64,000 nucleotides of DNA. It comes from a virus. Numbering within the stretch: the first letter of the stretch is position 1; each line of letters begins with the position of its first letter. A program made the translations under genes and the position numbers. Below, piece after piece: positions 18,597 to 44,592 of the stretch. The DNA lies in IMG/VR virus record IMGVR_UViG_3300008267_000018, positions 20,613 through 84,612 of that record; one strand, given 5' to 3'. A model generated the notes under the pieces. The model ran no database searches. It was not told where the DNA came from and was given only the letters and a program-made list of their open reading frames with translations.

Positions 18597-18626
18597 TTAG
18601 ATCAAGCCGAGAATCCTAAGCCAGGA
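18597..18626 (-). pseudogene. stranded original 3' end (SWLRILGLI*) of gene 19161..19520
   Basis: TCC TGG CTT AGG ATT CTC GGC TTG ATC TAA versus the current tail SWLSILGLI*. Confidence 0.8.
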
Positions 18627-19158
18627 GTTTACAACTGATTTCAGGCAATACATTTAATACTGAAAAATCTTTGTAAACATCTTTAACAAAGCAATTGTAT
18701 TCATAGGCTAAACGAGCAGGGCATATGTGATGAGCAAGATGTTTAGACTTACCGTTTAGAGTAACGGTAGACCTAAATAAACCTCTTGTCTTGTGCCATG
18801 AAACCCCCTTGTAACCCGTAGTGTTACTAGATCTAAGTTTCATGTTTGCTGCGTTTTGAGATCTACTTGATAAACGTAGATTTTCAATACAGTTATTAGA
18901 ACTATCTTGATCTATATGATCAACTTCATATTGACCAGGATCTGTACCTGTGGCCAGATAATAAACAATCCTGGCGCACTTATAGTTCTTTCCATTGATT
19001 TGAATTATAGATCGCTTGGATTTAAAATCATAGGCACCTGCCTGTTCACCAGGTTTGCATCGATTATTAAAGCTGTATTTAACAGCAAGACCAGTAGGAA
19101 AACTGGGGCAAAGTTCATAACGCTTTGCCACCAAATCGTAGTCAGGCATGTTGTGCAT
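18616..19158 (-). mobile_element. HNH-AP2 homing endonuclease
   Basis: VDHIDQDSSNNCIENLR, SSNTTGYKGVSWHK; AT-rich; start adjusted to ATG 19158. Confidence 0.85.
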
Positions 19159-19160
19159 AA

Positions 19161-19520
19161 TTAAATCAATCCAAGAATTGATAACCAAGAATCTACGTGG
19201 TCTGGTTCGACTTCGTCACTGCAGGGAGTGAGGCAGGTGCTGTCGAACGTGTACTCCTCGATCTCTTCGTTGGTTGGGATGTCGTACCATCCTTCGAGAT
19301 CTTCCTTGTCCTGGGCTGAGTAGTTACCACCGGCTGGGATCCAGTAGCACCTGAGGATTCCACGCTTGGTTCTGTAGACATTACCAGTGCAGGCGATGGC
19401 GCCTTTGGGTGCGTCCTGAAAGTCTGTCTCTGCTTGGAACTGCTGGTTACCTTCGTCTTCGTCGAAGGCTTCGTAGCCGAGTGCGTCTGCGATGAGCAGT
19501 TGTTCAGGTTGAAGAGACAT
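19161..19520 (-). CDS. hypothetical protein whose C-terminus is supplied by the HNH cassette
   Basis: DSTCLTPCSDEVEPDHVDSWLSILGLI. Confidence 0.7.
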   Translation of the reverse strand: MSLQPEQLLIADALGYEAFDEDEGNQQFQAETDFQDAPKGAIACTGNVYRTKRGILRCYWIPAGGNYSAQDKEDLEGWYDIPTNEEIEEYTFDSTCLTPCSDEVEPDHVDSWLSILGLI

Positions 19521-19672
19521 GAGATGAGATCTCCGATGAGTGTGATTGAGATTGAGATGAGTGTGATCAGGACAATGGCGATGTCGTCAACAATGTCGAC
19601 CTGCTGTTGATTAGCAGTTGATGTCGGCACAGTTGACGAGTTGTCCTTAGTACGTTGAGTTGATTTGGTCAT
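19193..19672 (-). CDS. membrane protein overlapping 19161..19520
   Basis: hydrophobic helix IAIVLITLISISITLIG followed by an S/T-rich tail in the overlap. Confidence 0.5.
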   Translation of the reverse strand: MTKSTQRTKDNSSTVPTSTANQQQVDIVDDIAIVLITLISISITLIGDLISCLFNLNNCSSQTHSATKPSTKTKVTSSSKQRQTFRTHPKAPSPALVMSTEPSVESSGATGSQPVVTTQPRTRKISKDGTTSQPTKRSRSTRSTAPASLPAVTKSNQTT

Positions 19673-19674
19673 GG

Positions 19675-19818
19675 TTAATCACCGTGGTAAGTGGATGGGT
19701 AGTCAGTGGTATCCCAATCAGATTGATTGGATTCACGCATGGCTTGCTCCTGCTCATAGGCAATGTCTGCCATAGCATCAAGCAAGTCTGCGTTGTAGTT
19801 CTGATCAAGTTGAGTCAT
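19675..19818 (-). CDS. small acidic protein (47 aa, MTQLDQNYNADLLDAM...)
   Basis: read manually; CTCAACTCA leader and pseudoknot copy 7 upstream. Confidence 0.55.
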   Translation of the reverse strand: MTQLDQNYNADLLDAMADIAYEQEQAMRESNQSDWDTTDYPSTYHGD

Positions 19819-19840
19819 GGTCTGAGTTGAGATGGAACGG

Positions 19841-19868
19841 TGAGCAGTTTAAGGACATGCTCAGGTCC
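19841..19868 (-). ncRNA. leader pseudoknot, copy 7
   Basis: GGAC-CTGAGCAT-GTCC-TTAAAC-TGCTCA. Confidence 0.75.
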
Positions 19869-19886
19869 ATACGTAGTACTGATGTA

Positions 19887-20261
19887 CTACCTCATGAGTC
19901 TGTTCTTGAAGTTGGGGATATATACATTGTCTTGGCACGGTTCCTTATAGGACCTGTACGTGACAATTGCATAGATGGCCGCTGGTGTCATGTCGTATGC
20001 CCTGGCAATAAACCCAATTGATTCATTGTATTTAGCACGGGCACGAATGTCATTGACCTGGGCATCACTAAGGAAGCCACGGTAGCGTCCACGTTTGATT
20101 GGGTCTTCCTTGAGGGGAGGACGTTGCCTCACTCTACGGATGACCTTAGTCATTGATATGGGACTGCAGTTGACAATGCTAGCGATCAGATCGTAGCGAT
20201 AACCTTTGCAACGCAGATCCCAAATCTGGTCTTCTTTCAGGATAGAAATGCGTGATTTCAT
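19887..20261 (-). CDS. tandem HTH DNA-binding protein
   Basis: LRCKGYRYDLIASIVNCS and LSDAQVNDIR..IARAYDMTPAAIYAIV. Confidence 0.65.
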   Translation of the reverse strand: MKSRISILKEDQIWDLRCKGYRYDLIASIVNCSPISMTKVIRRVRQRPPLKEDPIKRGRYRGFLSDAQVNDIRARAKYNESIGFIARAYDMTPAAIYAIVTYRSYKEPCQDNVYIPNFKNRLMR

Positions 20262-20283
20262 TGGATTTGAGTTGAGTTGTTGG

Positions 20284-20311
20284 TGAGTAGTTTAAGGACA
20301 TGCTCAGGTCC
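20284..20311 (-). ncRNA. leader pseudoknot, copy 8
   Basis: GGAC-CTGAGCAT-GTCC-TTAAAC-TACTCA. Confidence 0.65.
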
Positions 20312-20422
20312 ATCTAATACTTGGAATCTTAATAACCGTTGTTTATCAAAGATCTTAATAACTAAACAGCCATTACTTTGGTGCTGGCTGTTCGGGTGGG
20401 GGTCTGGGGGTAAACCTAGTGC

Positions 20423-20764
20423 TTATCTTATGTATAGGTATGAACCTGCATAATCACAGTTGTGTAGGCAGGTTTCAAATGATTGATCATCCAGTAGTTG
20501 GTACCGTGCATGTTCCGCTGGTGCTTTCCATGATGCAGGCTTATAGATAGTCCCTGTCTGTCTTGCGACAAATGCATGGACTGATCTGCCTTCATACCTG
20601 GTACCAGGACTAGAGACATGGATGATCTTGTAGTACTTAACCCCTCGCTTAACTTCGAAAGCTACGGGGCTACTGTGCTGTTTGTAGAACTTATCTTGGA
20701 GAGTCTCGCAGAGTTGTTGGATGCGATCCTCGATAAGCTTGGTGTTAGCGCTTAGTGTTGTCAT
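20423..20764 (-). CDS. conserved cyanophage hypothetical protein
   Basis: GVKYYKI..SVHAFV...TG.IYKPASWKAPA..ARY. Confidence 0.7.
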   Translation of the reverse strand: MTTLSANTKLIEDRIQQLCETLQDKFYKQHSSPVAFEVKRGVKYYKIIHVSSPGTRYEGRSVHAFVARQTGTIYKPASWKAPAEHARYQLLDDQSFETCLHNCDYAGSYLYIR

Positions 20765-20942
20765 GTTGTTGAGTAGGAGTTGGGTTGGTGATATCAATGC
20801 CGACTACAGCAGTTGCTGTGAAGCCAGCAATGATAAGTGATAGGGCTGCCACACAGATCTTACTAAGGCGAGTCTCATGAGACGCATAGTAAGAATCAAG
20901 GTGGACAAATTGCCCTGGTGCTAGACGAACGATGTGCTTCAT
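20745..20942 (-). CDS. small membrane protein
   Basis: hydrophobic ICVAALSLIIAGFTATAVVGI. Confidence 0.55.
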   Translation of the reverse strand: MKHIVRLAPGQFVHLDSYYASHETRLSKICVAALSLIIAGFTATAVVGIDITNPTPTQQHDNTKR

Positions 20943-20948
20943 TGGTTT

Positions 20949-21209
20949 TCAGTTGACTGCAAGGATGTACTTAACGCATACGTAGCTTGGCACTACGTAG
21001 TAGCTAGGAATCTCGTTGAGATAGTACCATTCACCCTTGTAGTCAAGAGATATGCAAGAGTTTTCGGTAACAAGCTGTAGTGCTTTGGCGCCTGTGGTGC
21101 ACCAAACCATGTATACATTCTTGTCAAACAGCAGATAGTAATCATGCTCTTTGATGTCAAACTCTTTGAGTGCAGATTGAATTTGAATGTGGTCAAGTGT
21201 GATTGGCAT
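20949..21209 (-). CDS. hypothetical protein
   Basis: 86-aa ORF. Confidence 0.55.
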   Translation of the reverse strand: MPITLDHIQIQSALKEFDIKEHDYYLLFDKNVYMVWCTTGAKALQLVTENSCISLDYKGEWYYLNEIPSYYVVPSYVCVKYILAVN

Positions 21210-21233
21210 AGAGATTCAACTGGGTTGAGTGTG

Positions 21234-21279
21234 TGCAGACGCTGAGGTCTGCAGTAAAGGCCCGAAGGCCCTTAGTGCA
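21234..21279 (-). ncRNA. intergenic double-hairpin element A
   Basis: TGCA CT AAGGGCC TTCG GGCCTTT AC TGCA GAC CTCAGC GTC TGCA. Confidence 0.6.
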
Positions 21280-21283
21280 AACG

Positions 21284-21481
21284 TCAAAGGTAACGCTTAT
21301 CCAGGCAATAGTATGCATCGCCTATAAAGCTACGCATGTATACCAGTTGATGCCCTGCTTTCGCTGGGCAATGTTTGACGTAATAATTGTTGAGTAACTT
21401 CTGTGCTCCTACGGATAAGAGCATACCTGCTCCTACGCCCATAACCATGGCCAGCACAGGTGTTGCGAGTGAGTCTTTCAT
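21284..21481 (-). CDS. small membrane protein
   Basis: N-terminal hydrophobic helix and a Cys pair. Confidence 0.55.
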   Translation of the reverse strand: MKDSLATPVLAMVMGVGAGMLLSVGAQKLLNNYYVKHCPAKAGHQLVYMRSFIGDAYYCLDKRYL

Positions 21482-21520
21482 GTCAGTTGAGCTGAGGTTG
21501 ATTGAGTGTGTTGAGAAGGA

Positions 21521-21793
21521 TCACATGCGTTGAAGCTTGCGCTCTAGTTCCATGTCAATGGAGTAATGATAGTAGTCTTCCATCTCCATGAGCATCTCCT
21601 TCATACTTGTTGGTACGCCACCGCCAAGTGTACGTACGTCACGGTCTAGCCACTCTTGCCATTCGGCATCGGTGTCTGGGTCAAATGTATTCCACAGCTT
21701 CTCAAAGTGAAGCTGGGTTGATTCGCCGCCATACCATGTGACGCGGTACTGTTGTTCGGCGGATGGTTTGTAGACCAGCTCAGGTGTTGTCAT
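21521..21793 (-). CDS. hypothetical protein
   Basis: 90-aa ORF. Confidence 0.6.
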   Translation of the reverse strand: MTTPELVYKPSAEQQYRVTWYGGESTQLHFEKLWNTFDPDTDAEWQEWLDRDVRTLGGGVPTSMKEMLMEMEDYYHYSIDMELERKLQRM

Positions 21794-21818
21794 TGTTGAG
21801 TTGAAGTAGCGTTGATGA

Positions 21819-21864
21819 CAGGATGTTGAGTCCTGCAGTAAAGGCCCGTAGACCCTTAGTGCAG
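21819..21864 (-). ncRNA. intergenic double-hairpin element B (paralog of A)
   Basis: CTGCA CT AAGGGTC TACG GGCCTTT AC TGCAG GA CTCAACA TCCTG. Confidence 0.6.
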
Positions 21865-21867
21865 AAG

Positions 21868-22041
21868 TCAGAGTTCAGGTTTAGGAGTAATGACGAATGC
21901 CACATCGTTAGGCATCAGTAGTGCTGCTGCCCTGATGCGGTATTCATTCAGCTTGGTGCTGACATACTCCTTAGATTTGTCACTCTCCAGCATTGCTGCT
22001 GTCGAGATGAGTGCATTGGCTAGTCCTTTGCGGATACCCAT
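21868..22041 (-). CDS. hypothetical protein
   Basis: start adjusted to ATG 22041 (MGIRKGLA...). Confidence 0.55.
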   Translation of the reverse strand: MGIRKGLANALISTAAMLESDKSKEYVSTKLNEYRIRAAALLMPNDVAFVITPKPEL

Positions 22042-22116
22042 GTTGTGTTGTGTAGATGCCACTGAGTGTGGCAATTCCTGACCAGGGGATTTGATCCCCC
22101 GGCATCACGCTTGTGA

Positions 22117-22308
22117 TCAGGCAAGCCAATTCTGGTAGATCCAGATACGGCACTCATCGTAATCAAGGTTGACGTTGGGGTCTTTGCACATGGCAGAAGC
22201 CTGAGCCTCTACCCATGTGCAAACGTGGCAATCAACCATGACAGGCAGCTCGATGCCACATACTGTTGCAACGTAATCGCCCTGTTGATTAAGTGAGATA
22301 CAGTTCAT
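22117..22308 (-). CDS. small Cys-rich protein
   Basis: 63 aa; leader motif and pseudoknot copy 9 upstream. Confidence 0.55.
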   Translation of the reverse strand: MNCISLNQQGDYVATVCGIELPVMVDCHVCTWVEAQASAMCKDPNVNLDYDECRIWIYQNWLA

Positions 22309-22338
22309 GATGTTGAGGTGAGTTGATGTGGGTTTGAT

Positions 22339-22363
22339 GCTACGTTTAACGTCCAGCTTGACG
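22339..22363 (-). ncRNA. leader pseudoknot, copy 9 (variant)
   Basis: CGTC-AAGCTG-GACG-TTAAACG-TAGC. Confidence 0.5.
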
Positions 22364-22561
22364 TGTAATCCCGAGCTATTACATCGGAATTAACTAGTAT
22401 TATCAGGTAGCTATAGGATCACTGTCCTATTTGAACGCTGTGATAGCAAGGGGTTTGACCCTAAATAGCGCCCGAAATGTGTTGATTTGGTAACAAATAA
22501 CAGGTATTGAGGGCTATATGAACCCCTGGTTGCCCAGGGGAATAGGTAACCGTCTACGAAG

Positions 22562-22870
22562 TCAGGCCTTCACCTTCGCGCGGAACACATACTTGTCCGC
22601 CTGCTTGGTGCAGTAGACAATATACGTGCGTGCTTCGTGATAACCTTCGCCGCAATAGGCTCCGTCTCGTTCTGCTTCCCAACATGCCTCGGCTTCTTCA
22701 AACCTCAGCCATGTTGATAGCGATACAATAACGTCTTGCGGCTTCACTCCATACCTACGGAGTTGCTGCTCTGTCATTGTTACACTCTTGCCATACCACA
22801 GGTGGCTGGCTACCATCTGGCAACGGTCGTCAAACTCGACAACCTTCTGCTCTTCCTTCGTCAGTTGCAT
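22562..22870 (-). CDS. hypothetical protein
   Basis: 102-aa ORF at the head of the left arm. Confidence 0.6.
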   Translation of the reverse strand: MQLTKEEQKVVEFDDRCQMVASHLWYGKSVTMTEQQLRRYGVKPQDVIVSLSTWLRFEEAEACWEAERDGAYCGEGYHEARTYIVYCTKQADKYVFRAKVKA

Positions 22871-23124
22871 TAGATTAGATGCGATTGGACTCTGCGTTGT
22901 ACGGATGCGCAGCCCCCGCTATTCCCCTCCTACATACCTAAACTTCTCAAGGGTATGCACCCTTTCTTTTTTTCTTTCCGGTATTTGTTTCGGAGGGGTT
23001 GTTGGAGAAGGCTCAGGAAAATCATTTACCTTTTTGGCCCTATAAGGGGCCATTTCGAAGTAAAAAAATTAAGTAATATTCAATCTTTGTGATGTTTTTA
23101 CCTAGTTAGCCCAAGTTTTTACAC

Positions 23125-23150
23125 AAAAAAGCCGAGGTGTTATCCTCGGC
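23125..23150 (-). terminator. intrinsic terminator
   Basis: GCCGAGG-ATAACA-CCTCGGC followed by TTTTTT, after 23176..23382. Confidence 0.75.
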
Positions 23151-23175
23151 GTATCAACTTATGTTTTCGTTATCT

Positions 23176-23382
23176 TTAGAAAGTATCCCTTGCGGCTTCT
23201 GCAGCACTTACAGCTTTAGCATATTGCTGCCAATCGGGCTTTTGACGGGCTAATTCACCCCTGGAACCCTGAATAAACGTACGTACTTCAATTGGATTAG
23301 CTCCTTCGCCAGCCATCTCTTCCGCTTTGGCCTTAATTGCCTTTAAAGCAACAATTCGTTGAGCCCTATCGTTTGCGTCCAT
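23176..23382 (-). CDS. hypothetical protein
   Basis: 68 aa with its own terminator. Confidence 0.6.
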   Translation of the reverse strand: MDANDRAQRIVALKAIKAKAEEMAGEGANPIEVRTFIQGSRGELARQKPDWQQYAKAVSAAEAARDTF

Positions 23383-23511
23383 TGTAAAAAATTAGTTTTT
23401 ACCCCAATTGGGCGTTAAACTTTTTTGATTCCCTTAGTCTATAACATCTACTTTCTGCATAACACCACGTAAAATACAAATATCAAGAATTTAGTAAGCA
23501 AATAGTTTCTA

Positions 23512-26493
23512 ATGGCGTTAGCACCGGCCGATTTTTACGCATACAGCCGTGCCACTGGGACTCCATACCCAGAAGATCCGCAGGAAAGGGCTGAAATGGC
23601 CCCTGCTGTAGCCGAATTCCGCCGTAATCAACTCAAAGCACCTCAACAGGAGTCAAATCTACTTGCCACCATTGGTGCCGCAGCCCTGGGCCTTGGTGCA
23701 TTAGCTGGTGGTGCGTATGGTGCCAGGCGTTTGTTCAAAGCTCCCCAAGGAGTGCGGGAAGCGGGGCGCAAAATCACTGATCTTCCCAGTGCCGAAGCTG
23801 TTTTACAGAGGGCTGCTGAGCCCTACAAACTCGCAGATACCACCCCACCTCCCTCTAAAACTGCAATTCCCCAAGCTACGGTTGATTTAACAACTATCCA
23901 GGAAACTCAAAAGCCTGCTGTTGTCAAACAACAGGTAGAAGCAAACGACACTGGAGCAGATCAACTGACTGGCCGTGTTGATCAACAGATGCAACGTGAT
24001 ACAGACTTTGTCAAATTTAGTCGTCAAGCAGATGTTGTTGCGGAACGCAATGCACGCTTGCGTACGGCTGCAGATCAAATCTGGGGATTTGAAGAAGAGC
24101 TTGAAGAAGCTGGTAAACGCTACCAAGCCTATCGCGCTGGTCAATCACAGTTCCGTCCGTCCGTTGCAGACTTAACTGGGTCGTTGAACATAAAGGGTAA
24201 GGATGTTGTATTTAGCAATCAACTTGAAAGAACACAGGCTGCCCTTGGCTTGACACCTAAAGCTGCTAATGCTCAGATCAGGGATCGCATTATGGCCATA
24301 GCATCTGCTTCTGAGGAAGAAGCTGCACGTTTAATGGATCCAAACGTACCAGTTTCTGAATTGCGTACATTAATGGGTACGACCAAACGACTCAACCCAA
24401 CAATGGAGGTACGCGGCCAGGGACAGATGGGTCCTACAGACTATGAAAACTTCCAAACCAAACGTCTTGCTGAACTTGCAGGCGAAGAAGTTGCCCAGAA
24501 ATTCCTGGAGGAACGTCTAGGTACTGGTGCGACATTGACCGGCATGCGTGAAGTGAATAATCCGGAATATACGGACATCATGTTTAATGAGTTTATTCCT
24601 CATTGGGATGAGCTTGCTGAACAAGGCGCTTTAAAGCCACGCAATACCACTGTCACTGCAGAAGACGTTGAGCGTTATGGGTTGCCTCCAGAACGGATGC
24701 ATTCCAATATGTCTTTCTTTGAACGCAAAAATCTGGAACAACAAATTGATCCTGATTATGACAAAGGCGGCACTGGGCTTTATCTAAGTGAGTTTGCAGA
24801 TGCCATTGGCTTATCCAAAATTCCCCAAACAATTATCGAGGGGCAACTTGGTAAACCTTTAACCGAAACACTTGGATCAAAAGAACAATCCAACAAAGGC
24901 ACTACTTTTATCCCTGGTCGAGTACAAGAAGCCGAGGGGAACGTAGAGGGCTCCTTGCGCCAATTACGTGAAATTGACGAAGCAATTCCTGTGCGTGCAA
25001 CCAGGGCAGGCGAAGAAAGTACCGGTGTATTTGCCACCAGTGATCCCGAGCGTCCTTTCCGTCTTGTTGGCGAAGGTCGCCGGGAACGCAACAAAATTAC
25101 CAGCGAAGATATTAATGCACAATCAACTCGCTTACGTGGTGGTTATGAAATGCCGGAAGCTACGCCCTTCTTCCAGACAGGCGGTAACGTCGAAGTAAAA
25201 CTTGACGACAAGGGTTTCATGACTCCTGTTGTAGTCAATGAAAGGGGCGGCAGAACTTTAATTACAAACTTAAATCAAGCAACAAACACACTCGGTGTCG
25301 CAGGTACGCACAAACCAGGCGAAGAAATTCTGCGCATTCAACCTTACATGATGCAGCGCACTGTAGAAGAAGGTGGGCAGCAATTGACTATCAAACAGCC
25401 CCTTTATGGAACTCTTCAGCAACGTACCGCTACAGGCCTAAAACCTGCCGCTGTAAGCAAAGCTGAAGTCCAAGGGATTGCCTCTGGCGCAGCTGAAAAA
25501 TGGAATGGATCCGTCAATAACCGTGTTGATTGGCTTGCGCAAAATGAACCAGGGTATCTAGAGGAGAAAGGGTACGTCTTAGCTCAACAGCAAATCCCTG
25601 GAACCCAACGCGTTAAAAATGTTGTTGTAGCGTCCCCCTTGAAGGCAGATCCAAATCTTGGCGAACCTTATCACTACACAGGTTTTATTGCAGAACAGGT
25701 GCATACCAACCTAAAACAAAAAGGACTTGACTTACCGGTATTGCAAGATCCTTCTGCTAAACATCAATTTATTACTGACGTTACAAATGTAACGACAGAG
25801 CGTGCGGTGTATGGCAAAAACAAAGCCAAAGAGTCTATCTTGATTCCTGGTCGCGTTGCTCAAAAAGGATTAAGTGGTATTGATCCAATGCAATTTGAAG
25901 ATGCAGGAGAGAGTGCAGGGGGTGTTGCTTTCTACACTCCTCGCGTTGATACCATCTCACAAAGAAAAACAGGTGATCAACCAGAGGCTCGAATTCTTCC
26001 TGCCGCTCTTGAATCTGGTGTTGGCCGAACTCAAGAAGAAGTACAAAACACGTTGATGATGCAAGCGGCTAATCGCAAAGAAATGCTGGAAGCAGCGCGT
26101 CTTACTCCTGGCGGCCGAATTAACCGTGAAGCCCTGGGCAGCGAGAGCGACATTCTCAATAAGTATGGCGTTTCTTCAGCTAAGTTAATGCAAGAAGCAA
26201 ATGCTCAAATGTCTCGTTCTCAGCAGTTTGTTAATCAATTACCTCAAGCGCAACGCGCTTTGGCTGAGCAACAACAAAATGCCGTTGCAGCGCAAGAAAC
26301 CGCAGATGCAGTAGCCCGGCATATTGGTAACTATATTTCTGCGGCTACTCAACGGATTGACGACCCCCTCTCCTGGAAAGGCGATGTTAAACTCAAAGGA
26401 GTAGGGCAAAACGCATTACGTCCTTATACCAAACCTTCAGAGGGAATGGTTCAGGCTTTAATTAATATGTCTCGTAGTCGAGGTCAATTATGA
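23512..26493 (+). CDS. large hypothetical protein, possibly internal virion protein
   Basis: 993 aa with one N-terminal Gly/Ala hydrophobic segment; first gene of the right arm. Confidence 0.7.
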   Translation: MALAPADFYAYSRATGTPYPEDPQERAEMAPAVAEFRRNQLKAPQQESNLLATIGAAALGLGALAGGAYGARRLFKAPQGVREAGRKITDLPSAEAVLQRAAEPYKLADTTPPPSKTAIPQATVDLTTIQETQKPAVVKQQVEANDTGADQLTGRVDQQMQRDTDFVKFSRQADVVAERNARLRTAADQIWGFEEELEEAGKRYQAYRAGQSQFRPSVADLTGSLNIKGKDVVFSNQLERTQAALGLTPKAANAQIRDRIMAIASASEEEAARLMDPNVPVSELRTLMGTTKRLNPTMEVRGQGQMGPTDYENFQTKRLAELAGEEVAQKFLEERLGTGATLTGMREVNNPEYTDIMFNEFIPHWDELAEQGALKPRNTTVTAEDVERYGLPPERMHSNMSFFERKNLEQQIDPDYDKGGTGLYLSEFADAIGLSKIPQTIIEGQLGKPLTETLGSKEQSNKGTTFIPGRVQEAEGNVEGSLRQLREIDEAIPVRATRAGEESTGVFATSDPERPFRLVGEGRRERNKITSEDINAQSTRLRGGYEMPEATPFFQTGGNVEVKLDDKGFMTPVVVNERGGRTLITNLNQATNTLGVAGTHKPGEEILRIQPYMMQRTVEEGGQQLTIKQPLYGTLQQRTATGLKPAAVSKAEVQGIASGAAEKWNGSVNNRVDWLAQNEPGYLEEKGYVLAQQQIPGTQRVKNVVVASPLKADPNLGEPYHYTGFIAEQVHTNLKQKGLDLPVLQDPSAKHQFITDVTNVTTERAVYGKNKAKESILIPGRVAQKGLSGIDPMQFEDAGESAGGVAFYTPRVDTISQRKTGDQPEARILPAALESGVGRTQEEVQNTLMMQAANRKEMLEAARLTPGGRINREALGSESDILNKYGVSSAKLMQEANAQMSRSQQFVNQLPQAQRALAEQQQNAVAAQETADAVARHIGNYISAATQRIDDPLSWKGDVKLKGVGQNALRPYTKPSEGMVQALINMSRSRGQL

Positions 26494-26714
26494 CAAAAGA
26501 AAAAAAGAAAGATAAAAAGTGGATTCAAGGCGCTGATATCAAGGAAGGCGCCTTTACTGCCAAAGCTAAACGTAAAGGTATTACCTCTGCTCAGCTCCAA
26601 GAGAACGTATTATCTGATCCAGACAAGTACGATGACAAAACCGTCAAGCAAGCGCGGTTGCGTCAAACCTTGGTAGGATTACATAAGAAGAAAAAAGAAA
26701 AAACCGAAGATTGA
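26490..26714 (+). CDS. small basic protein
   Basis: KWIQGADIKEGAFTAKAK...KQARLRQTL. Confidence 0.7.
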   Translation: MTKEKKKDKKWIQGADIKEGAFTAKAKRKGITSAQLQENVLSDPDKYDDKTVKQARLRQTLVGLHKKKKEKTED

Positions 26715-27259: not shown

Positions 27260-27300
27260 AAATAGGTTGAGTACAATAAAGAAAAGAATTTAACAATACA

Positions 27301-28820: not shown

Positions 28821-28852
28821 TAGAATCTATTTTATAAGAAACATTTTTAATA

Positions 28853-35249: not shown

Positions 35250-35287
35250 TCCTAAAATAAATAAATAAAATAATTTTTTTTATTTCA

Positions 35288-35581: not shown

Positions 35582-35760
35582 GTTACATCTTGGAGATCCA
35601 GGAGGACGAAAACGGAGATCAATACATTACGCTACCCGATGAGGTGGTTGACGAGCTTGGCTGGCAAGAGGGGGATATTCTTAACTGGGACGTAAAAGGT
35701 AATGGTATTATTCTTAACAAAGTCAATGATTGCTCTGGTTACGAAGTAATAGAAGAGTAA
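35578..35760 (+). CDS. AbrB/MazE-like DNA-binding protein
   Basis: YITLPDEVVDELGWQEGDILNW. Confidence 0.7.
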   Translation: MSYILEIQEDENGDQYITLPDEVVDELGWQEGDILNWDVKGNGIILNKVNDCSGYEVIEE

Positions 35761-35783
35761 AATAGAAACAAAGAGAGGCTTAG

Positions 35784-36245: not shown

Positions 36246-36280
36246 TTTATTGTTAGTATTAATCAAACAGAGGAGCAATA

Positions 36281-38599: not shown

Positions 38600-38990
38600 T
38601 GCCGTAGCCTGGGGCCAACGTGCACAAAATCTGATTGGTGGTTATGCCGATTTTGCGGTTGCTGAGCATACCGAGAATCTGGCTTATAACGAAATCCTGA
38701 CCAACCCTGATGTTCTTAGCGATTACACGCTGAAGTTCTTTGGTCCTGAAGGTCCGTACCCCGTGTACGAAAATGAAGCTCAACTGGAAACCCGTGGTTA
38801 TCCCACCGCTCCGGTTCAAGCTAACTACGGTGAGTTCCCTGCTCCTCCTGCTGCTTCTGCTCCTCAGCAACCTGAAAACTTCTGGGGCAGCTTTAAGCAA
38901 CAAATGGAAACTAGCCCTGAAAACGCTTGGCGTCTTCTGAACTATGCCCAGCCCAACGTGGTTGCAAACAAACTGTTTGTGATGGAGTGA
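38028..38990 (+). CDS. putative capsid scaffold protein
   Basis: low-complexity P/Q/A/S N-terminus and helical C-terminus; AAGGAG Shine-Dalgarno; position before the capsid gene. Confidence 0.65.
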   Translation: MQDATVQSIPQMSPAQPSVAPSSYVTAAAPAPSSYQAAPVAYQVGTAYPQAIPQANISYQSAPTQYAPQSQPAEAPQGNPWESAFNKVVNLLSAPVQSPFQGQQSAPTTYTPANYGQPSSPATWNSAAPTSLTNPASLPSSSQTSSSPSLADVADYLGLSQESRVVIDAYGVEAPALLNQYALQLEGMLDSAVAWGQRAQNLIGGYADFAVAEHTENLAYNEILTNPDVLSDYTLKFFGPEGPYPVYENEAQLETRGYPTAPVQANYGEFPAPPAASAPQQPENFWGSFKQQMETSPENAWRLLNYAQPNVVANKLFVME

Positions 38991-38994
38991 GGCA

Positions 38995-39621
38995 ATGAAT
39001 ATTGCCGGTAAGTTCTCTCCGATGTTATCCAGGGCTAAGCAAGAGCTTACTACTGGCGCATTGAGTCCGGCAAAAACTGCTGCCATGGCACCATTGGCCT
39101 ACGGGCTGATTGGTGCTGGCGGTTCAGTTGCCGGTAATTTATCTGACGAAGAAAACGAAGGTGCAGGTCGCATTCTTACCGAAGCTGCATTAGCAGGCTT
39201 GGGTGGCGCAGCTGCAGGTCGAGCCATTGGTCAGATTGGCAAAGAAAACATTGCTCTTCAAAGAGGCATTGGTAATCTAGAGCGCGAAGCAACGCCTTAT
39301 ATTTCACGTGCGTTATATGCTGCAGAAGCAGGTGCGCGTGACACGGCAAAAGCTGCAAATCAAAAAGCTATTCCCATGCTGGAGCGTCTTGGTAAACAGC
39401 AGCAACTCCTTAACTTGAGTCGCGCTGAACAAGGTGCCACAATGGCAGCTGCTCCTATCGCGGCTGGTATTGGTGGCTTGGTTGGCGGTGGCGTTTCTAA
39501 CGTTGCCGGCTTAATGCTCCCTGGGTTCCAACAGCAACAACAGTACGTGGATCCTGAGCAATACGGCTCAAGTAACACGATGGGTGCACGTGCATCCACG
39601 ACCACAGCCCAGTACATGTAA
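38995..39621 (+). CDS. Gly/Ala-rich putative virion protein
   Basis: glycine-zipper-like segments. Confidence 0.6.
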   Translation: MNIAGKFSPMLSRAKQELTTGALSPAKTAAMAPLAYGLIGAGGSVAGNLSDEENEGAGRILTEAALAGLGGAAAGRAIGQIGKENIALQRGIGNLEREATPYISRALYAAEAGARDTAKAANQKAIPMLERLGKQQQLLNLSRAEQGATMAAAPIAAGIGGLVGGGVSNVAGLMLPGFQQQQQYVDPEQYGSSNTMGARASTTTAQYM

Positions 39622-39722
39622 TTAACTAAATTACGGGCTGCTAAAATTTGTGTTAGATAAGACATATAAATGTCTGAATCTTTCACCCGATAAATTCCTG
39701 CGACACTGGAGGATAAAGTAAA

Positions 39723-40892
39723 GTGTTCATTGATAACGACTTTCCAAAGATTTTGGGCGCCGAACTCTATCGGCCCCATCCTGCTTACATTGCCGAAATG
39801 GCAGTGGAGCCTGTGGTTGTCCACGACTTCACTCGTCAGCCCGGTCAAACTGTTCAGTTAGACCGCTACAAGTTCTGGGGTACCCCTGGTACTAAGGATA
39901 GCCGTGAGCGTATTGCCGACCAAACCATCGGTACCGCTAACAGCCGTAACATCACCAAGGAAAAAGTCCTGGTGGTGCTTAAGGAATACACCGGTCCTGC
40001 GGACCCCGGCGATCCGACCCAGCCTTCGACCTTCAAGATTGCTCGTGAGACCCTGATCACTGCTCAGCGCCTTCTGCTGGATAGTGGCAACCTCAACATG
40101 TTCCACCAGTCCATCGGTAGCCTGACGCTGCTTGATGACTATCGTCGTTGGCGCGACCGCGTCTTCATTGACGAACTTGCCAAAGCTGAAGCCAATGGTG
40201 CCGCTTCCTCTACCCAGGGTGGTTACTACTTCCCCGGCGGCAAAGTTAAGGACGCCTCTGGTCGTGTATCCTACACCCAAGCTCAGTACGAAGCCCAAGT
40301 GCAGCAGTTCCAGGTGCGTACCGACCTGCTGACCGTTGTTAAGGATCTGCGTAAGCGCAACGTGCCGACCTTCGCTGATGGTCTGTATCGTTGTATTTGC
40401 GATCCCACTTTCATGATGCACCTGCGTCGTGACCCCGACTTCCGTGAGATCGCTCGTTACTCTGGTAACCCCGGCCAAGGCATGTACATGGGCAACCCCA
40501 TGCTGCCTAACAACGCCAGCTTCTTCCAGGGTCCCCAAGCTGGTCAAGGTTACTTCCTGGCTGGCGAACCTGTCATGCCGACCGGCGTGCAGTTTGAAGG
40601 CGTCAAGTTCTTCGAGTCGACCAACTTCCCGACCAAGAGCATCACTGCCGACCTCAATATCGGTGGTAGCTCTAACTACACTTCTTACGAAGTTGCTCAG
40701 GGTTACTTCTTCGGTCCTCAAGCTATTGGCGTTGGCATCGGCGGCCCTAATGCCCAGGTGCTTATCAACAATAACGACGACTTCAGCCGTTTTATCATCT
40801 TAATTTGGCAGCTGTATGCTGGCTTCGAGATTCTGAACAAGGACTTCGTGACCACCGCCTTCAGCTTCCTGCAAGACGACGGCACCATCTGA
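39723..40892 (+). CDS. major capsid protein
   Basis: 389 aa; DFTRQPGQTVQLDRY, very strong codon bias, GGAGG Shine-Dalgarno, position. Confidence 0.85.
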   Translation: MFIDNDFPKILGAELYRPHPAYIAEMAVEPVVVHDFTRQPGQTVQLDRYKFWGTPGTKDSRERIADQTIGTANSRNITKEKVLVVLKEYTGPADPGDPTQPSTFKIARETLITAQRLLLDSGNLNMFHQSIGSLTLLDDYRRWRDRVFIDELAKAEANGAASSTQGGYYFPGGKVKDASGRVSYTQAQYEAQVQQFQVRTDLLTVVKDLRKRNVPTFADGLYRCICDPTFMMHLRRDPDFREIARYSGNPGQGMYMGNPMLPNNASFFQGPQAGQGYFLAGEPVMPTGVQFEGVKFFESTNFPTKSITADLNIGGSSNYTSYEVAQGYFFGPQAIGVGIGGPNAQVLINNNDDFSRFIILIWQLYAGFEILNKDFVTTAFSFLQDDGTI

Positions 40893-40923
40893 TAACAATA
40901 AATAAATTATCTAGGAGAAATAA

Positions 40924-41721
40924 ATGACCTATTTGTCTTCCAAAAAAATCTACCCAGGCAACTGGGCAGAGCCTCTGAACGGTTGGTATAAGAATATCGA
41001 CAACAGCCAGGATGGAACCAATGATGGTTCCAAGGGCGGCCCCACTTCGGTGCTGGCTACCCCTGGCTATCGTTATTTCCAACAGCGTGGTTACGTGGCT
41101 GTTACCGCCACCTCTGGCACTCCTGTTGCTACGGGTAACGTGATCATTCCTTCGCCTTACCGCCAGGATGACACCCGTACCGACATCACCGGCATGGTGA
41201 TCTCTGGTACCACCGCCCAGCCTGCTTTTGTGTATCGCACTGCCGTCTCCGTTGCCTCTGGCTGGGGCGATGGCCGCGTGGCTTCCGGTGTGTATGCCGC
41301 CACCGGTAACGTGATCTCCTTCGGTCGTGACTCCAGTGGCCCCACCGCCGCTTCTGGCGTTGGTGAAGGTGTGATCCAAGCCAACCTGACTTCCAGCACC
41401 TCTGGTGACGCAGCTACCAAGATTTACTTCGCTGGTGGCAGCCAAGCTTTTGGTACCGCTCCGTTCATCACTGCTACTGGCGGTGCTGGCGTTTCCGGCG
41501 GTGTGTGCTACTACGCTGCTACCACTGGCACCACTCTGAAAGTGTTTGCTAAAGGTGCTGCTAACGACACCTCTACTTCTGGTGGTTTCTACATCTCGAC
41601 CGCTGATGCTGCTGCTGGCCGCACCGGTTACCTGGTTGTGGAAGTTTGCTACATCCAGCCCGATGATGCCCCCGGTTACGAGGACATCGATGGTTACCTG
41701 ACTGGCCGCACTGTTAGCTGA
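40924..41721 (+). CDS. abundant structural protein (capsid decoration or tail-tube-like)
   Basis: beta-rich G/T/A/S composition, strong codon bias, directly after the capsid gene. Confidence 0.6.
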   Translation: MTYLSSKKIYPGNWAEPLNGWYKNIDNSQDGTNDGSKGGPTSVLATPGYRYFQQRGYVAVTATSGTPVATGNVIIPSPYRQDDTRTDITGMVISGTTAQPAFVYRTAVSVASGWGDGRVASGVYAATGNVISFGRDSSGPTAASGVGEGVIQANLTSSTSGDAATKIYFAGGSQAFGTAPFITATGGAGVSGGVCYYAATTGTTLKVFAKGAANDTSTSGGFYISTADAAAGRTGYLVVEVCYIQPDDAPGYEDIDGYLTGRTVS

Positions 41722-41759
41722 TTAGGTTAATATAAGACCAGAGAGAAAATCTGGTCTTT

Positions 41760-42173
41760 ATGATTCTTCATCAGCATAAAAAAACAGGCGCTCGCGTCAA
41801 GATCGTAAGCGAATGGGATAATGGCGATTGGTTCATGGTCGAAGATCAGGACGGTCGCCTTTACACTGCTTACAAAACTGAACTTATCCCTGATGAGCAA
41901 GCTACCAAAAAGGTGACTGCTCTTCAAGTAAAAGATAAGGCGGCACAGGAAGAGCCACGTACTTTTCCTCCGGACACTCGCTTGAACATCAACTCAGCCA
42001 CCGCCCAAATGATCGCAGATCATATCAAGGGCATTGGACTGAAGACTGCCCGAGAGATCAAAGATCTACAGATGTCCTTATCGGGTGAGAGATTTAACAG
42101 CCTTGAGCAGTTGAAACAAATCAAAAGAGTTGACTGGAGTGCGGTCTTGGCAGCCGATTTAATAAGGGTCTGA
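41760..42173 (+). CDS. helix-hairpin-helix (ComEA/PsbU-like) protein; C-terminus supplied by HNH cassette
   Basis: RLNINSATAQMIADHIKGIGLKTAREI...FNSLEQLKQI. Confidence 0.7.
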   Translation: MILHQHKKTGARVKIVSEWDNGDWFMVEDQDGRLYTAYKTELIPDEQATKKVTALQVKDKAAQEEPRTFPPDTRLNINSATAQMIADHIKGIGLKTAREIKDLQMSLSGERFNSLEQLKQIKRVDWSAVLAADLIRV

Positions 42174-42187
42174 TTTAAACGCATAAC

Positions 42188-42646
42188 TCAACCAAGAGGG
42201 GTAACACCCCTCTTTTTCATTATGGCGTTGAATTTTTCTTTATTTCTTGTTTTTATGTGATGGCATGTGCCACAGAGAACCTGGCATTTTTTTATTTCTT
42301 TTTCAAGTCTTTTTTTGCTAAACGTACCCCCTCGTCCAATGTTAAATTTTTTATCGTAAAGATGATCAAAATCTAGTCCCTCAGGGTGTTCGTTATACCC
42401 ACAGCATGCGCAACCTTCTGTTATTTTTAAATTGTTCATCCAGTTTCTGTTTTCAGAAGACAAACGTTGAGATCTTTTTTTGTCATAGGCTTTTTTCTTT
42501 TCTTGTTGGTCGGGACTCATCCATACCTCTAAAAAAGTTCCGTCTTGTTTAATTTTTTTAAAGTTGTAACCAATAAAAATAAAGCCGTCTTCCCTGCAGT
42601 CGCCGTGTTTAAAAAATGCCCCAGTTTTTGGATTAATTCTTTTCAT
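42188..42646 (-). mobile_element. HNH endonuclease inserted in inverted orientation
   Basis: CACCG...LDFDHL...CQVLCGTCHHIKT; AT-rich; flanked by a duplicated gene tail. Confidence 0.85.
42194..42217 (+). terminator. cassette-borne intrinsic terminator
   Basis: AAGAGGGG-TAACA-CCCCTCTT followed by TTT. Confidence 0.6.
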
Positions 42647-42691
42647 TTTTAAGATAGCAAAATAAAACTATAACACCTGAAACGTTTTATT

Positions 42692-42724
42692 GCCGTACTT
42701 GCTGCCGACTTAGTCCGCGTTTAA
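42692..42724 (+). pseudogene. stranded original 3' end (AVLAADLVRV*) of gene 41760..42173
   Basis: GCC GTA CTT GCT GCC GAC TTA GTC CGC GTT TAA versus the current AVLAADLIRV*. Confidence 0.85.
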
Positions 42725-42738
42725 CTTGTCTCCTACTG

Positions 42739-42762
42739 GCCCCTGGGAAACCAGGGGTTTTT
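42739..42762 (+). terminator. intrinsic terminator (original one for the capsid operon)
   Basis: GCCCCTGG-GAAA-CCAGGGGT followed by TTTT. Confidence 0.8.
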
Positions 42763-42790
42763 TAGTCTTAAAATTAAAAATAAAAGAATA

Positions 42791-43465
42791 ATGGCAGGAA
42801 TTGCATTCTTAGGAAATATTGGCAGTACCGGAACCTCCACTGGTCCGCATGGTCACGTCTATGTAAAGGACCTTGGCACTGGAAAACATATTGATCCGAG
42901 CACTATTCGTAGTGCTTTAACTGGGTTGCGTATTGGCGAGCAAAAAATTCCTGCAATTATCAAAAACAAAGAAGGTCAATTAGTTTTAAACCCGGCTTCC
43001 AACGTAGCCGTCACATCTAAATTTGGTCCTCGCACTGCGCCAACTGCTGGAGCATCTTCTTTCCACCAAGGTGAAGATTGGGCTCTTCCTCAGGGAACTC
43101 CTGTTTATATGGAAGGTGCGGGTAAGTTTACCCCCCTTGCCAATCAAGGTGGTTACGGAAACCTGGCAACATTTAAAACAGGAGATAACAAATACGAAGT
43201 AGGTATCGGACACATGGCAAGCCTTGGCAAGGCTGCAGAATTCGCAAGCAATCAAACGCCAACTGCTAACGCACAAAACACTGGATCCAATATGGATTCT
43301 TTTGTGCAAGCCATGATGTACGGAGCATCCCTGGCACAACCCAAGCAAAAGACTTTGCAGCAGTCTATGTTTGAACAGATGGCAGCTTCTGCTATGGCGC
43401 CCAGGCGCAGTTTGGCACAAGAAATGCTAGAGCAATACATCAGCTCAAATCCTTACCAAGGTTAA
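42791..43465 (+). CDS. M23 family peptidase, circularly permuted
   Basis: GSTGTSTGPHGH (HxH) at the N-terminus, before HQGED (HxxxD) and GGYGN...GHM. Confidence 0.8.
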   Translation: MAGIAFLGNIGSTGTSTGPHGHVYVKDLGTGKHIDPSTIRSALTGLRIGEQKIPAIIKNKEGQLVLNPASNVAVTSKFGPRTAPTAGASSFHQGEDWALPQGTPVYMEGAGKFTPLANQGGYGNLATFKTGDNKYEVGIGHMASLGKAAEFASNQTPTANAQNTGSNMDSFVQAMMYGASLAQPKQKTLQQSMFEQMAASAMAPRRSLAQEMLEQYISSNPYQG

Positions 43466-43514
43466 GTTTCAAGGGATTCTTTGCATTTATAATTGAAAGA
43501 TACGCAAGTTAGAA

Positions 43515-43976
43515 GTGCAATTATCTGACTTTGACAAAAGTAGGGTCAGGTATCACCTGGGCTATTTCACGGTTTCTGTTCCGGCGGGCGATTACGCACG
43601 TCTGGAAGAAGCCCTGAATACCATCCCAGATTCGTACTTCTACGATAAAATTGCTATTCAAATTGGTCGTTGTGATACTGCCGAGAAAAAGACTGAGGTA
43701 GCCACTTCACCTTCTACTCGACTCGAAAGTATTGCTGGTGACGTTGATCGTACTATTCGGTCAAGTAATGCCAAGGAAGCATTAAAAGTTTGGGACGAGA
43801 TCTATCTCTACGAAACAAACCGTTTGGCTGGCATTCTTTACGTACCTAACTACAAGGATCCGTTCCAGGCTCGTTATCGTTACGAACGCTCTGGTGCTGA
43901 GTTTATCCAGGCATTACCTGGACCCGCCGATGTCTCGGTTGGCACTCGCATATATCTTCACGAGCTATGGCGATGA
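43515..43976 (+). CDS. putative head-tail adaptor; C-terminus supplied by HNH cassette
   Basis: LSDFDKSRVRYHLGY N-terminus and position in the morphogenesis region. Confidence 0.55.
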   Translation: MQLSDFDKSRVRYHLGYFTVSVPAGDYARLEEALNTIPDSYFYDKIAIQIGRCDTAEKKTEVATSPSTRLESIAGDVDRTIRSSNAKEALKVWDEIYLYETNRLAGILYVPNYKDPFQARYRYERSGAEFIQALPGPADVSVGTRIYLHELWR

Positions 43977-44016
43977 TTTAATCCGTGTATGCTAGGATAT
44001 TGATACACGGATTAAA
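43977..44016 (+). promoter_or_regulatory. 14-bp hairpin over the HNH initiation region, with a -10-like TAGGAT in the loop
   Basis: TTTAATCCGTGTAT / ATACACGGATTAAA; ATG at 44020. Confidence 0.6.
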
Positions 44017-44019
44017 CAG

Positions 44020-44535
44020 ATGGTGGCCCCTTGTCCCTTGCCGGCGATTGAAGAGTTAAAAGAATATTATGAATATATACCAGAAACAGGTGAGTTGTTT
44101 TTAATTAAATCACGTTGCAAGGCTGATAAGCAAAAAATCGGTAAACCAATCGGTTCTCTTGGCGGTCCGGTAAGACGCAAAACGTGGACGATAAAACATA
44201 AAGGGAAAAGCTATTACATTAGTCGAGTTGCCTGGGTATTGATGACCGGTATAGATCCAGGTCTTTTGCTGGTTGAGCATAAAAACAGAAATGCCCAAGA
44301 CAATCGCTGGGAAAATTTAAGGTTGGCTAGTGAGGCGGAAAACAACTACAACAAAATTTTTGTTGGGTATAGCCAAAGGAAAGATAACGAGCTGTACCGT
44401 GTTCGTGTTACTTTGGAAGGTAAACGTATCACCGTAGGCAACTTTAAGACCGAGGAAGAAGCAAAGAAGGCTGCCCTAGATGCGCAAAGACTTTTCTATA
44501 AAGAATTTGCGTGTCTTGATTTAGAATCAAATTAA
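44020..44535 (+). mobile_element. HNH-AP2 homing endonuclease
   Basis: YIPETGELF, VEHKNRNAQDNRWENLRLA, YRVRV..GKRITVGNFKTEEEA. Confidence 0.85.
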
Positions 44536-44550
44536 TAAATAAAGTAGCCC

Positions 44551-44592
44551 GCTGTCGGTTCACGCATCTATCTACATGAGGTTTGGAGGTAA
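44551..44592 (+). pseudogene. stranded original 3' end (AVGSRIYLHEVWR*) of gene 43515..43976
   Basis: matches the current tail SVGTRIYLHELWR*; contains the GGAGG Shine-Dalgarno for the next gene. Confidence 0.85.

Follow-up and report, generated by a model that had tools for sequence, protein, structure and literature searches.

Three genes in a 64-kb stretch of phage DNA (hereafter the window; it spans bases 20613-84612 of an IMG/VR virus record that is 84,612 bp long and has direct terminal repeats) end in codons that appear to have arrived together with a nuclease gene. In each case a free-standing HNH endonuclease gene is located between two versions of its neighbour's last codons, one of them in frame with the body of the gene and the other displaced to the far side of the nuclease gene. 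We consider it highly probable that each of these units is a splicing-free homing cassette, composed of a replacement gene end and a free-standing HNH gene, which lies between a conserved gene body and the displaced native end. All three units have this architecture, they are polymorphic for presence and absence among close relatives and within single metagenomes, and they combine a foreign, nuclease-linked in-frame end with a native, lineage-specific displaced one. Throughout the text the nuclease gene is called the HEG (homing endonuclease gene), the displaced native gene end is the "stranded" tail, and the in-frame or "new" tail is the end borne by the cassette; the host genes are X1, X2 and X3 at sites 1 to 3, with the nuclease genes HNH1, HNH2 and HNH3.

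Source of the sequence and comparison set

The source is a freshwater phage of the S-EIVl-like kind. Synechococcus phage S-EIVl was the sole named relative in the phage collection, with 73-77% nucleotide identity over about a fifth of the two regions queried, and the sequencing runs which contain the region mostly carry freshwater or lake metagenome labels, several being labelled as fungus metagenome. The comparison set comprised more than 80 related IMG/VR loci overall, labelled with L-numbers. Two IMG/VR scans identified 22 loci for the region of sites 2 and 3 and 20 for that of site 1, S-EIVl adding one locus to each of these sets, and scans based on the nucleases gave 18 loci for HNH2, 22 for HNH3 and, by pattern search, none for HNH1. 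Logan contigs of three metagenome runs from three different studies (X13, X14, and X15) were also compared; their depths are not usable as allele frequencies.

Duplicated gene ends flanking three HNH genes

The original prediction had reported three peptide-level duplications of gene tails around HNH genes, and reading of the sequence together with comparison confirmed all of them, coordinates included. At site 1, on the minus strand, SWLSILGLI (19161-19190) is paired with SWLRILGLI (18597-18626), with 21 of 30 nucleotides identical and 6 of 10 codons different, five of these synonymously. At site 2 the pair is AVLAADLIRV (42141-42173) and AVLAADLVRV (42692-42724), identical at 21 of 33 nucleotides and with nine of 11 codons differing, eight of them synonymous; at site 3 it is SVGTRIYLHELWR (43935-43976) and AVGSRIYLHEVWR (44551-44592), where 28 of 42 nucleotides are identical and 10 of 14 codons differ, seven synonymously. 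Each of these peptides is followed by a stop codon. Summed over the three pairs 20 of the 25 differing codons are synonymous, and therefore both copies have diverged as coding sequence.

The likelihood of such pairs arising by chance was addressed by scanning the whole 84.6-kb genome for 9-mers at the end of an open reading frame (ORF) which recur before another stop codon on the same strand at a distance of no more than 1.5 kb. In this stop-anchored scan the three pairs rank on top, each with eight of nine residues identical, and 20 shuffled genomes gave in total one match of at least six of nine. Under a looser control, which accepted any 9-mer in any frame on both sides of 200 random 500-bp "inserts", the 95th percentile of the score was 38, with sites 1, 2, and 3 scoring 40, 38, and 50; judged by the peptides alone, the similarity at sites 1 and 2 is therefore modest, and the case for the duplicated ends rests on stop-anchoring and on the comparative data. 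A cross-locus control, which paired the left flank of one locus with the right flank of a second, was not used, since pairings within a cassette family, with scores of 38-50, had contaminated it.

The genes between the tail copies are free-standing HNH genes, as had been proposed, with HNH1 and HNH3 recognised by Pfam HNH_3 and HNH2 by a PHROG HNH family, and their orientations are indeed mixed, HNH1 and HNH3 being directed along the host gene and HNH2 opposite to it. The original prediction labelled HNH1 and HNH3 as HNH-AP2; their AP2 matches score below the Pfam cut-off. At all three sites the host gene is closed by a stop codon ahead of the HEG. A search of the 64-kb window with Rfam at gathering thresholds detected no intron family, its sole match being one tRNA (a tRNA gene at 13847-13919, minus strand). 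Alternative C-termini produced through splicing were ruled out, given the lack of an Rfam intron family in the window and the presence of a separate stop codon in each host ORF.

Empty and occupied alleles across relatives

If the stranded tails are the native gene ends, alleles without the HEG should have the stranded type of tail fused to the gene body, as the original prediction had specified. This was found for 17 of 17 HEG-free alleles at site 1, 21 of 21 at site 2, and 19 of 20 at site 3. Relatives which lack the HEG and yet carry the new tail were looked for, and none was seen with the exception of a chimeric allele at site 3 (in L007, described below). The new end was linked to a HEG in 15/15 occupied alleles at site 3, 10/10 at site 2, and 5/5 at site 1. 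The stranded tails match the IMG/VR empty alleles at 30/30 nucleotides at site 1, 32/33 at site 2, and 36/42 at site 3. At all three sites the in-frame divergence begins no more than 2-8 nt from the start of the stranded copy, and lineages that bear a given cassette all share the codon at which the junction lies. It should be noted that the Fisher p for the drop in identity at the junction ranges from 7e-7 to 0.21 and varies with the relative chosen. The stranded tails follow the local lineage, and the new tail accompanies the HEG through diverged lineages.

Presence of the cassettes differs even between close relatives. Among the loci with 95-97% amino acid identity in the neighbouring genes, five (L008, L009, L010, L012, and L021) lack both HNH2 and HNH3, L011 carries HNH2 only, and L007 carries HNH2 plus a cassette at the head of X3. 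The distance between new and native tails is about that between the native tails of different lineages; since the new tails are no more divergent than this, they look like the ends of foreign alleles.

X2 and X3 are the most conserved genes of the region, with a mean column identity of 92 and 93%, respectively, over 12 lineages. In the distant ones among these lineages identity falls to 45-62% for the neighbouring M23 peptidase gene, and Y3 gives partial tblastn matches of 33-59% identity. The high conservation of X2 and X3 fits nucleases aimed at conserved sequence.

Site 2: X2 and HNH2

The features of site 2 are as follows.
41760-42173, plus strand: host gene X2, helix-hairpin-helix-like, a 137-aa ORF in the virion-gene region
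42138-42173, plus strand: cassette-borne tail of X2, S-AVLAADLIRV and stop codon, including the junction codon linked to the HEG
42194-42214, plus strand: predicted terminator-like hairpin of the cassette, just past the new stop codon; the 3' end of HNH2 overlaps with it
42188-42646, minus strand: HNH2, free-standing HNH endonuclease of the Cys-dyad type, inverted with respect to X2 (phrog_3106 "HNH endonuclease", 7e-24)
42692-42724, plus strand: stranded native tail of X2, AVLAADLVRV and stop codon, 1/33 nt from HEG-free L012 and 2/33 from L008
42738-42759, plus strand: native X2 terminator, now behind the stranded tail; 20 HEG-free relatives have this hairpin behind their single tail

The HHH_3 match of X2, at 25.8 bits, is slightly under the Pfam cut-off of 27, and comparison of the X2 and X3 profiles with the PDB gave nothing useful. 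HNH2 has no Pfam match at E 0.01 and a weak PDB match to 4h9d, an "HNH endonuclease" (E 0.27).

Of the 24 alleles at this site three are occupied, i.e., those of the window, L007, and L011; in all the other 21 the tail is single and the native terminator comes after it. The in-frame tail of the window differs at 13 of 33 nucleotides from the closest empty allele, that of L012. Identity to L012 is 95% across the 150 upstream nt and falls to 61% in the in-frame tail (Fisher p = 1.7e-6), with 97% for the stranded tail; the match to the empty allele picks up again at 42691. The junction codon encodes Ser, Asn, or Pro in 10/10 occupied contigs and Asp or Glu in 21/21 HEG-free alleles. Both tails are present in all eight IMG/VR loci whose HNH2 is 75-99% identical, two of which are the L007 and L011 contigs. 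In L057, where HNH2 is 65% identical, the stranded tail is mostly deleted and a remnant is left; a comparable hairpin of other sequence was found by eye in the same place as the cassette hairpin of the window. In the printed sequences the stranded tail of L051 reads, from its GTA codon onwards, exactly like the one native tail that L020 has.

Genomes resemble one another far more closely in the HNH2 cassette than in the sequence flanking it. Over X2 and the cassette (41650-42700) the window is 95-100% identical to L007 and 91-100% identical to L011, the neighbouring bins being at 82-89%. In the metagenome run X15 one contig covers 42152-42783 with zero differences. Metagenome joints of 42097, 42121, and 42137 to 42738-42740, whose intervening letters are not known, are compatible, and no more than that, with empty alleles carrying other tails. 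As a separate observation on this locus, L025 has a 536-bp insert (3465-4000) between the X2 terminator and the M23 gene, with an open frame which contains a GDS motif and runs towards M23; it is not an HNH gene.

Site 3: X3 and HNH3

The features of site 3 are as follows.
43515-43976, plus strand: host gene X3, 153 aa (phrog_29158, 8e-78)
43932-43976, plus strand: cassette-borne tail of X3, VSVGTRIYLHELWR and stop codon, with the signature VSVGT
43977-44016, plus strand: predicted hairpin that separates the new stop codon from the start codon of HNH3, its pairing largely kept across cassettes
44020-44535, plus strand: HNH3, free-standing HNH_3 endonuclease (Pfam HNH_3 E 1.2e-11, 44.5 bits against a cut-off of 24.8)
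44551-44592, plus strand: stranded native tail of X3, AVGSRIYLHEVWR and stop codon, containing the GGAGG ribosome-binding site of the next gene, the ATG of which is at 44595

A weak Atlas lead (score 0.90) connects X3 to a phage adaptor family. HNH3 matches phrog_99 at 6e-45 and, weakly, AP2 (17.4 bits, E 0.0058; Pfam cut-off 33.3). The predicted pairs of the hairpin are kept in seven or eight of nine cassettes, and one pair is compensatory in three sequences.

Analysis of 22 alleles identified two occupied ones, in the window and L020, and 20 without the HEG, of which 19 have the stranded type of tail (AVGS...EVWR). The VSVGT signature was present in 15/15 occupied contigs and in 0/19 HEG-free alleles with a native-type tail. 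With L008 the window shares 92% identity upstream, 64% in the in-frame tail, and 86% in the stranded tail, the drop over the relatives being from 92% to 64-71%. Among the loci with a full-length HNH3 (66-88% identity) 13 of 14 carry both tails, and the fourteenth ends at the contig edge. The remaining HEG-free allele (L007, 5751-5795) has a chimeric X3 tail, the first half of which is of the cassette type and the second half of the native type, with no HNH3 behind it; this fits loss of the HEG via recombination between the two tail copies.

Empty and occupied alleles of this site also coexist within single metagenomes. In contigs of X13, X14, and X15 position 43930 is joined to 44551 with four letters in between, which complete Asp-Thr before the stranded Ala-Val-Gly-Ser, and the same three runs also hold contigs free of differences across HNH3 and the stranded tail.

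Site 1: X1 and HNH1

The features of site 1 are as follows.
19161-19520, minus strand: host gene X1, body and in-frame replacement tail, a 119-aa ORF of the early region with no family
19161-19196, minus strand: cassette-borne tail of X1, SWLSILGLI and stop codon, plus the HEG-linked Val codon at 19194-19196 (H-V-D in occupied alleles)
18616-19158, minus strand: HNH1, free-standing HNH_3 endonuclease (Pfam HNH_3 E 1.6e-12, 47.3 bits against a cut-off of 24.8)
18597-18626, minus strand: stranded native tail of X1, SWLRILGLI and stop codon, matching the single tails of HEG-free L029 and L034 at 30/30 nt

X1 has no match in Pfam or PHROG; homologues with 48-89% amino acid identity are present in 20 IMG/VR loci and in S-EIVl. 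HNH1 matches phrog_99 at 3e-44 and has a weak AP2 match (18.4 bits, E 0.0027; Pfam cut-off 33.3). Its stop codon falls within the stranded X1 tail, in another frame.

The 22 alleles comprise five that are occupied and 17 that are HEG-free, and a single tail was found in all 17 of the latter. The in-frame tail of the window differs from the single tail of L029 and L034 at 9 of 30 nucleotides, and downstream of the stranded tail the sequence is the same as that after the single tail in these two loci. Identity with L034 is 88% in the upstream body, 70% in the in-frame tail, and 100% in the stranded tail; across the relatives used the drop at the junction is from 81-88% to 67-70%. The residues at the junction are H-V-D in 5/5 occupied alleles, and in the 17 HEG-free alleles they are H-P-D (n = 15), H-S-D (n = 1), and A-P-D (n = 1).

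A mirror-image cassette at the 5' end of X3

In L007 a nuclease gene whose product is 49% identical to HNH2 sits, inverted, after codon 30 of X3. The native head of X3 is identical to that of the window at 87 of 90 nucleotides and retains its native upstream sequence, but it is stranded, and its frame reaches a stop codon shortly afterwards. On the far side of the nuclease gene there is a GGAGG, a start codon, and a new head with 29 of 30 residues the same and 23 of 90 nucleotides different. L091 has the same 5' layout with a HEG 80% identical to that of L007, and between these two loci the new heads differ at 3/90 nucleotides and the stranded heads at 19/90. X3 receives from this cassette a new ribosome-binding site and a replacement for its first approximately 30 codons; the principle of end replacement therefore covers both ends of a gene.

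Proposed mechanism and the evidence that weighs against it

In a mixed infection the HNH enzyme would cut or nick the HEG-less allele at or near the junction between body and tail. The break would be repaired from the occupied genome, the left arm of homology being the gene body and the right arm the stranded tail together with the DNA downstream of it. Once the cassette had been copied in, the last 9-13 codons and the stop codon would come from the cassette, and because of this the host protein would remain full length; the cassette would bring along a terminator-like hairpin at site 2 and a hairpin at site 3. With many synonymous differences and one to three amino acid changes the junction would then be in the spelling of the cassette, and because of that the converted allele would no longer be cut. 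A cut at the junction, resistance of the new end, and spread through co-infection are what we infer from these sequences.

Several observations do not sit easily with this model. At site 3 the stranded tail differs by 5-6 of 42 nucleotides from every IMG/VR empty allele and was matched only by Logan contigs. The divergence of HNH3 between lineages is about that of its flanks, and without a clear excess of HEG over flank identity this cassette therefore looks old; recent mobility is shown for HNH2 only. At site 1 the pattern search found no IMG/VR relative of HNH1, so that the linkage between tail and HEG at this site rests on five alleles. Four of the relatives (L030-L032 and L043) have the new X1 tail and lack the stranded one, and their HEGs, which directly follow X1 (3329-3871 in L030-L032, 3350-3871 in L043), are only 35-38% identical to HNH1; despite these distant HEGs the cassette-type tail of L030-L032 is 4/30 nt from that of the window. 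The missing stranded tails and the distant HEGs are left unexplained by the simple model, and may reflect a swap of nucleases at one site or a full replacement of the gene end. In S-EIVl the tail peptide at site 1 is that of the new tail. Lastly, of the seven HNH-type genes of the genome four lack a flanking duplication, and the layout is therefore one option for these enzymes and not a rule. A further observation at site 1 is that in L030 native DNA restarts at the old stop codon behind the HEG.

The new tails had also been described as recoded. That they are foreign and linked to the HEG is borne out by the alleles above; a special recoding was not demonstrated, the tails being within native divergence at sites 1 and 2. 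There the nearest native tails are 5 and 6 nt away, inside the range of nearest-neighbour distances among native tails, which likewise counts against the model as first put forward, and recoding beyond natural divergence was dropped for these two sites. At site 3 the nearest native tail is 12 nt from the new one, a distance above those of all native tails but one.

Alternative explanations

The resemblance of the new tails to ordinary foreign alleles could point to passive mosaic joints, i.e., HNH genes which are passengers at the borders of recombination modules and duplicated ends which are scars of illegitimate recombination, with no site-specific cutting and no role in immunity. Identity profiles are indeed mosaic everywhere in this region, and in ICP1 phages the boundaries of genetic exchange are reported to carry nuclease genes (PMC10448857). 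We consider this unlikely, however, since the junction is at one and the same codon in all lineages with a given cassette, the same layout recurs at four different sites with different HNH genes, the new end was linked to a HEG in every occupied allele counted above, and random scars would not preserve the frame and a full-length conserved protein each time. Duplication of a target site upon insertion, followed by divergence of the copies, would account for the two copies starting at the same codon within 2-8 nt, as a staggered cut would give. Decay should then have affected the copy which is not translated, but the non-coding stranded copy has not drifted (0/30 and 1/33 differences from empty relatives), and it is the in-frame copy, which is under selection, that differs at 9-13 positions while the body upstream of it is 88-95% identical, the reverse of the predicted decay. 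Because the stranded copy and not the in-frame copy is the one that matches the empty relatives, target site duplication with drift is rejected, in agreement with the original prediction, and we regard it as highly improbable.

It might also be argued that the stranded ends are kept as regulatory DNA and that the HNH genes are domesticated weapons against competing phages and not selfish homing elements. At site 3 the GGAGG of the next gene lies within the stranded tail, at site 2 the native terminator comes after it, and at site 1 it provides the stop codon of HNH1; moreover, HNH3 cassettes persist across lineages with HEGs 66-85% identical. This explanation, very unlikely in our judgement, leaves the foreign in-frame end unaccounted for and is compatible with homing by end replacement, for which it is no substitute, and the stranded tail can be lost, as it is mostly deleted in L057 and absent in L030-L032 and L043. 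Finally, the window comes from a metagenomic IMG/VR record, and the samples contain mixtures of strains, two variants of which could have been collapsed into one contig. That such an assembly artefact generated the duplicated ends is scarcely credible: the layout was assembled independently in nine contigs for HNH2 and 14 for HNH3 from different samples, and Logan contigs of runs not flagged as the source cross the joints without differences.

Other HNH-type genes

The four HNH-type genes without a flanking duplication above the null are the following.
Window 3258-3707 (genome 23870-24319), minus strand: HNH-type gene
Window 49280-49672 (genome 69892-70284), plus strand: HNH-type gene
Genome 5201-5572 and genome 4515-5198, both outside the window: two HNH-type genes

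Two of these four were assigned by Pfam HNH_3 and one by PF01844 HNH, and the gene at genome 4515-5198 is HNH-like by eye. A flank duplication was also looked for, and not found, around the HEGs at occupied or nearby positions in the relatives L030, L036, L043, L047, and L048, and distant loci with HNH2-like or HNH3-like genes (L058-L066, L085, L087, and L088) had no duplication above the control range. Elsewhere in the window (10774-12504, minus strand) there are small ORFs of 68-132 aa ending in ANELENIND, ADELEGIND, ANELEQANG, RRALEQLHD, and RLALEQLDD. With no nuclease gene between them in the scan output, these look like tandem paralogues and not like footprints of HEGs.

Implications

On present evidence the question is evenly balanced whether gene-end replacement is a general third route, beside introns and inteins, by which HEGs reside inside essential phage genes, acting on 3' as well as 5' ends and through different HNH lineages, in an arms race that time and again rewrites the termini of the most conserved genes in both codons and amino acids. 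If it is, past invasions could be read across phage genomes from displaced short gene ends beside nuclease genes. The three cassettes themselves show how the coding sequence of a conserved phage gene can house a selfish nuclease gene with neither splicing nor a split protein, and they would extend to phages and to HNH enzymes a mechanism that has been proven in yeast and is known from fungal mitochondria. For annotation this means, on the homing-cassette reading, that orphan short "tails" or "heads" beside HNH genes are footprints and not noise, and for phylogenies and recombination maps that gene ends at such elements differ in history from the gene body. The junction predicts the target of the nuclease to approximately 10 bp, which makes the three enzymes candidate sequence-specific nucleases with pairs of putatively sensitive and resistant substrates. 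With its natural empty, occupied, chimeric, and 5'-end alleles this family of loci offers a good system in which to study the arms-race idea.

Comparison with known systems

Homing without splicing by free-standing endonuclease genes is known in phages from the seg and mob genes of T4 and has been termed "intronless homing" (PMC2988022). The cassettes described here share with these elements the free-standing HNH genes, the presence/absence polymorphism, the conserved target genes, and the regulatory hairpins beside the start of the HEG. T4-type elements are, however, either intergenic or split a gene into two polypeptides, as mobE does with nrdA of Aeh1 and mobA with gene 60 of T4 (PMC2988022), whereas here the cassette provides a substitute end, and the phage gene is thereby kept whole. 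The text of this review that was available describes no end replacement, and the string "duplic" occurs 0 times in it (PMC2988022). Within the open-access literature in PMC and bioRxiv (including the accessible text of PMC10448857, PMC12724721, PMC2988022, PMC2248197, and PMC8351571), a scope which extends neither to subscription papers nor to supplements, no description of gene-end replacement in a phage was found.

The closest descriptions come from fungi. The original prediction had named atp6 of the Allomyces mitochondrion as a precedent; this holds, but it is too narrow, as the mORFs of Glomus, Rhizopus, and Mortierella and the WHO elements of yeasts belong beside it. The mORF "gene hybrids" of fungal mitochondria have been described, in the sections of the paper drawn on here, for atp6 of Allomyces macrogynus, for atp6, atp9, cox2, and nad3 of a Glomus sp., for atp9 of Rhizopus, and for cox2 of Mortierella (PMC3630166). 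There too an endonuclease ORF brings a foreign in-frame C-terminus and leaves the native one downstream, with native C-termini 91-98% identical to close relatives, inserted ones 64-81% identical, and peptides that are nearly the same (PMC3630166); the phage counterparts are 86-100% for the stranded and 58-71% for the in-frame ends. The two systems differ in several respects, since the mORF enzymes are of the LAGLIDADG or GIY-YIG type in organelle hosts and those described here are HNH enzymes in a phage of lytic type, and since the duplicated pieces measure 50-280 nt in the mORFs and 30-42 nt in the phage (PMC3630166). In addition, some mORF endonucleases are fused in frame to the host gene, while the phage cassettes are always separated from it by a stop codon, and a 5'-end version with a new ribosome-binding site is seen in the phage relatives and does not appear in the available part of the mORF account (PMC3630166).

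WHO elements of Torulaspora and Lachancea yeasts consist of an endonuclease gene and a resistant 3' part of FBA1 (PMC7282813; bioRxiv 10.64898/2026.08.13.744650). According to the parts of these reports at our disposal, homing puts another 3' end on the host gene, which becomes chimeric, and moves the old end downstream, where this fragment acts as a homology arm; at the cut site identity falls sharply, in FBA1 from 99 to 85%, and an arms race over the target site is reported (PMC7282813; bioRxiv 10.64898/2026.08.13.744650). For WHO6 the cutting of the sensitive end of FBA1 and its resistant replacement have been demonstrated experimentally (PMC7282813); cleavage and allele specificity of WHO are thus experimental results, while the phage cassettes are known from sequence alone. 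WHO proteins are intein-derived LAGLIDADG zinc-finger proteins of a nuclear genome (PMC7282813) and the phage enzymes are HNH proteins; WHO replaces approximately 400 nt, and its repeated homing builds clusters of up to nine genes, compared with one HNH gene and one short stranded end at each phage site. The HEG-linked amino acid changes at the phage junctions are consistent with the same arms-race process as in WHO. No match to GIY-YIG (PF01541) was found in the genome. With enzymes of the HNH type and not of the LAGLIDADG or GIY-YIG type, the phage cassettes therefore appear to work like mORFs and WHO elements without being members of either group by homology.

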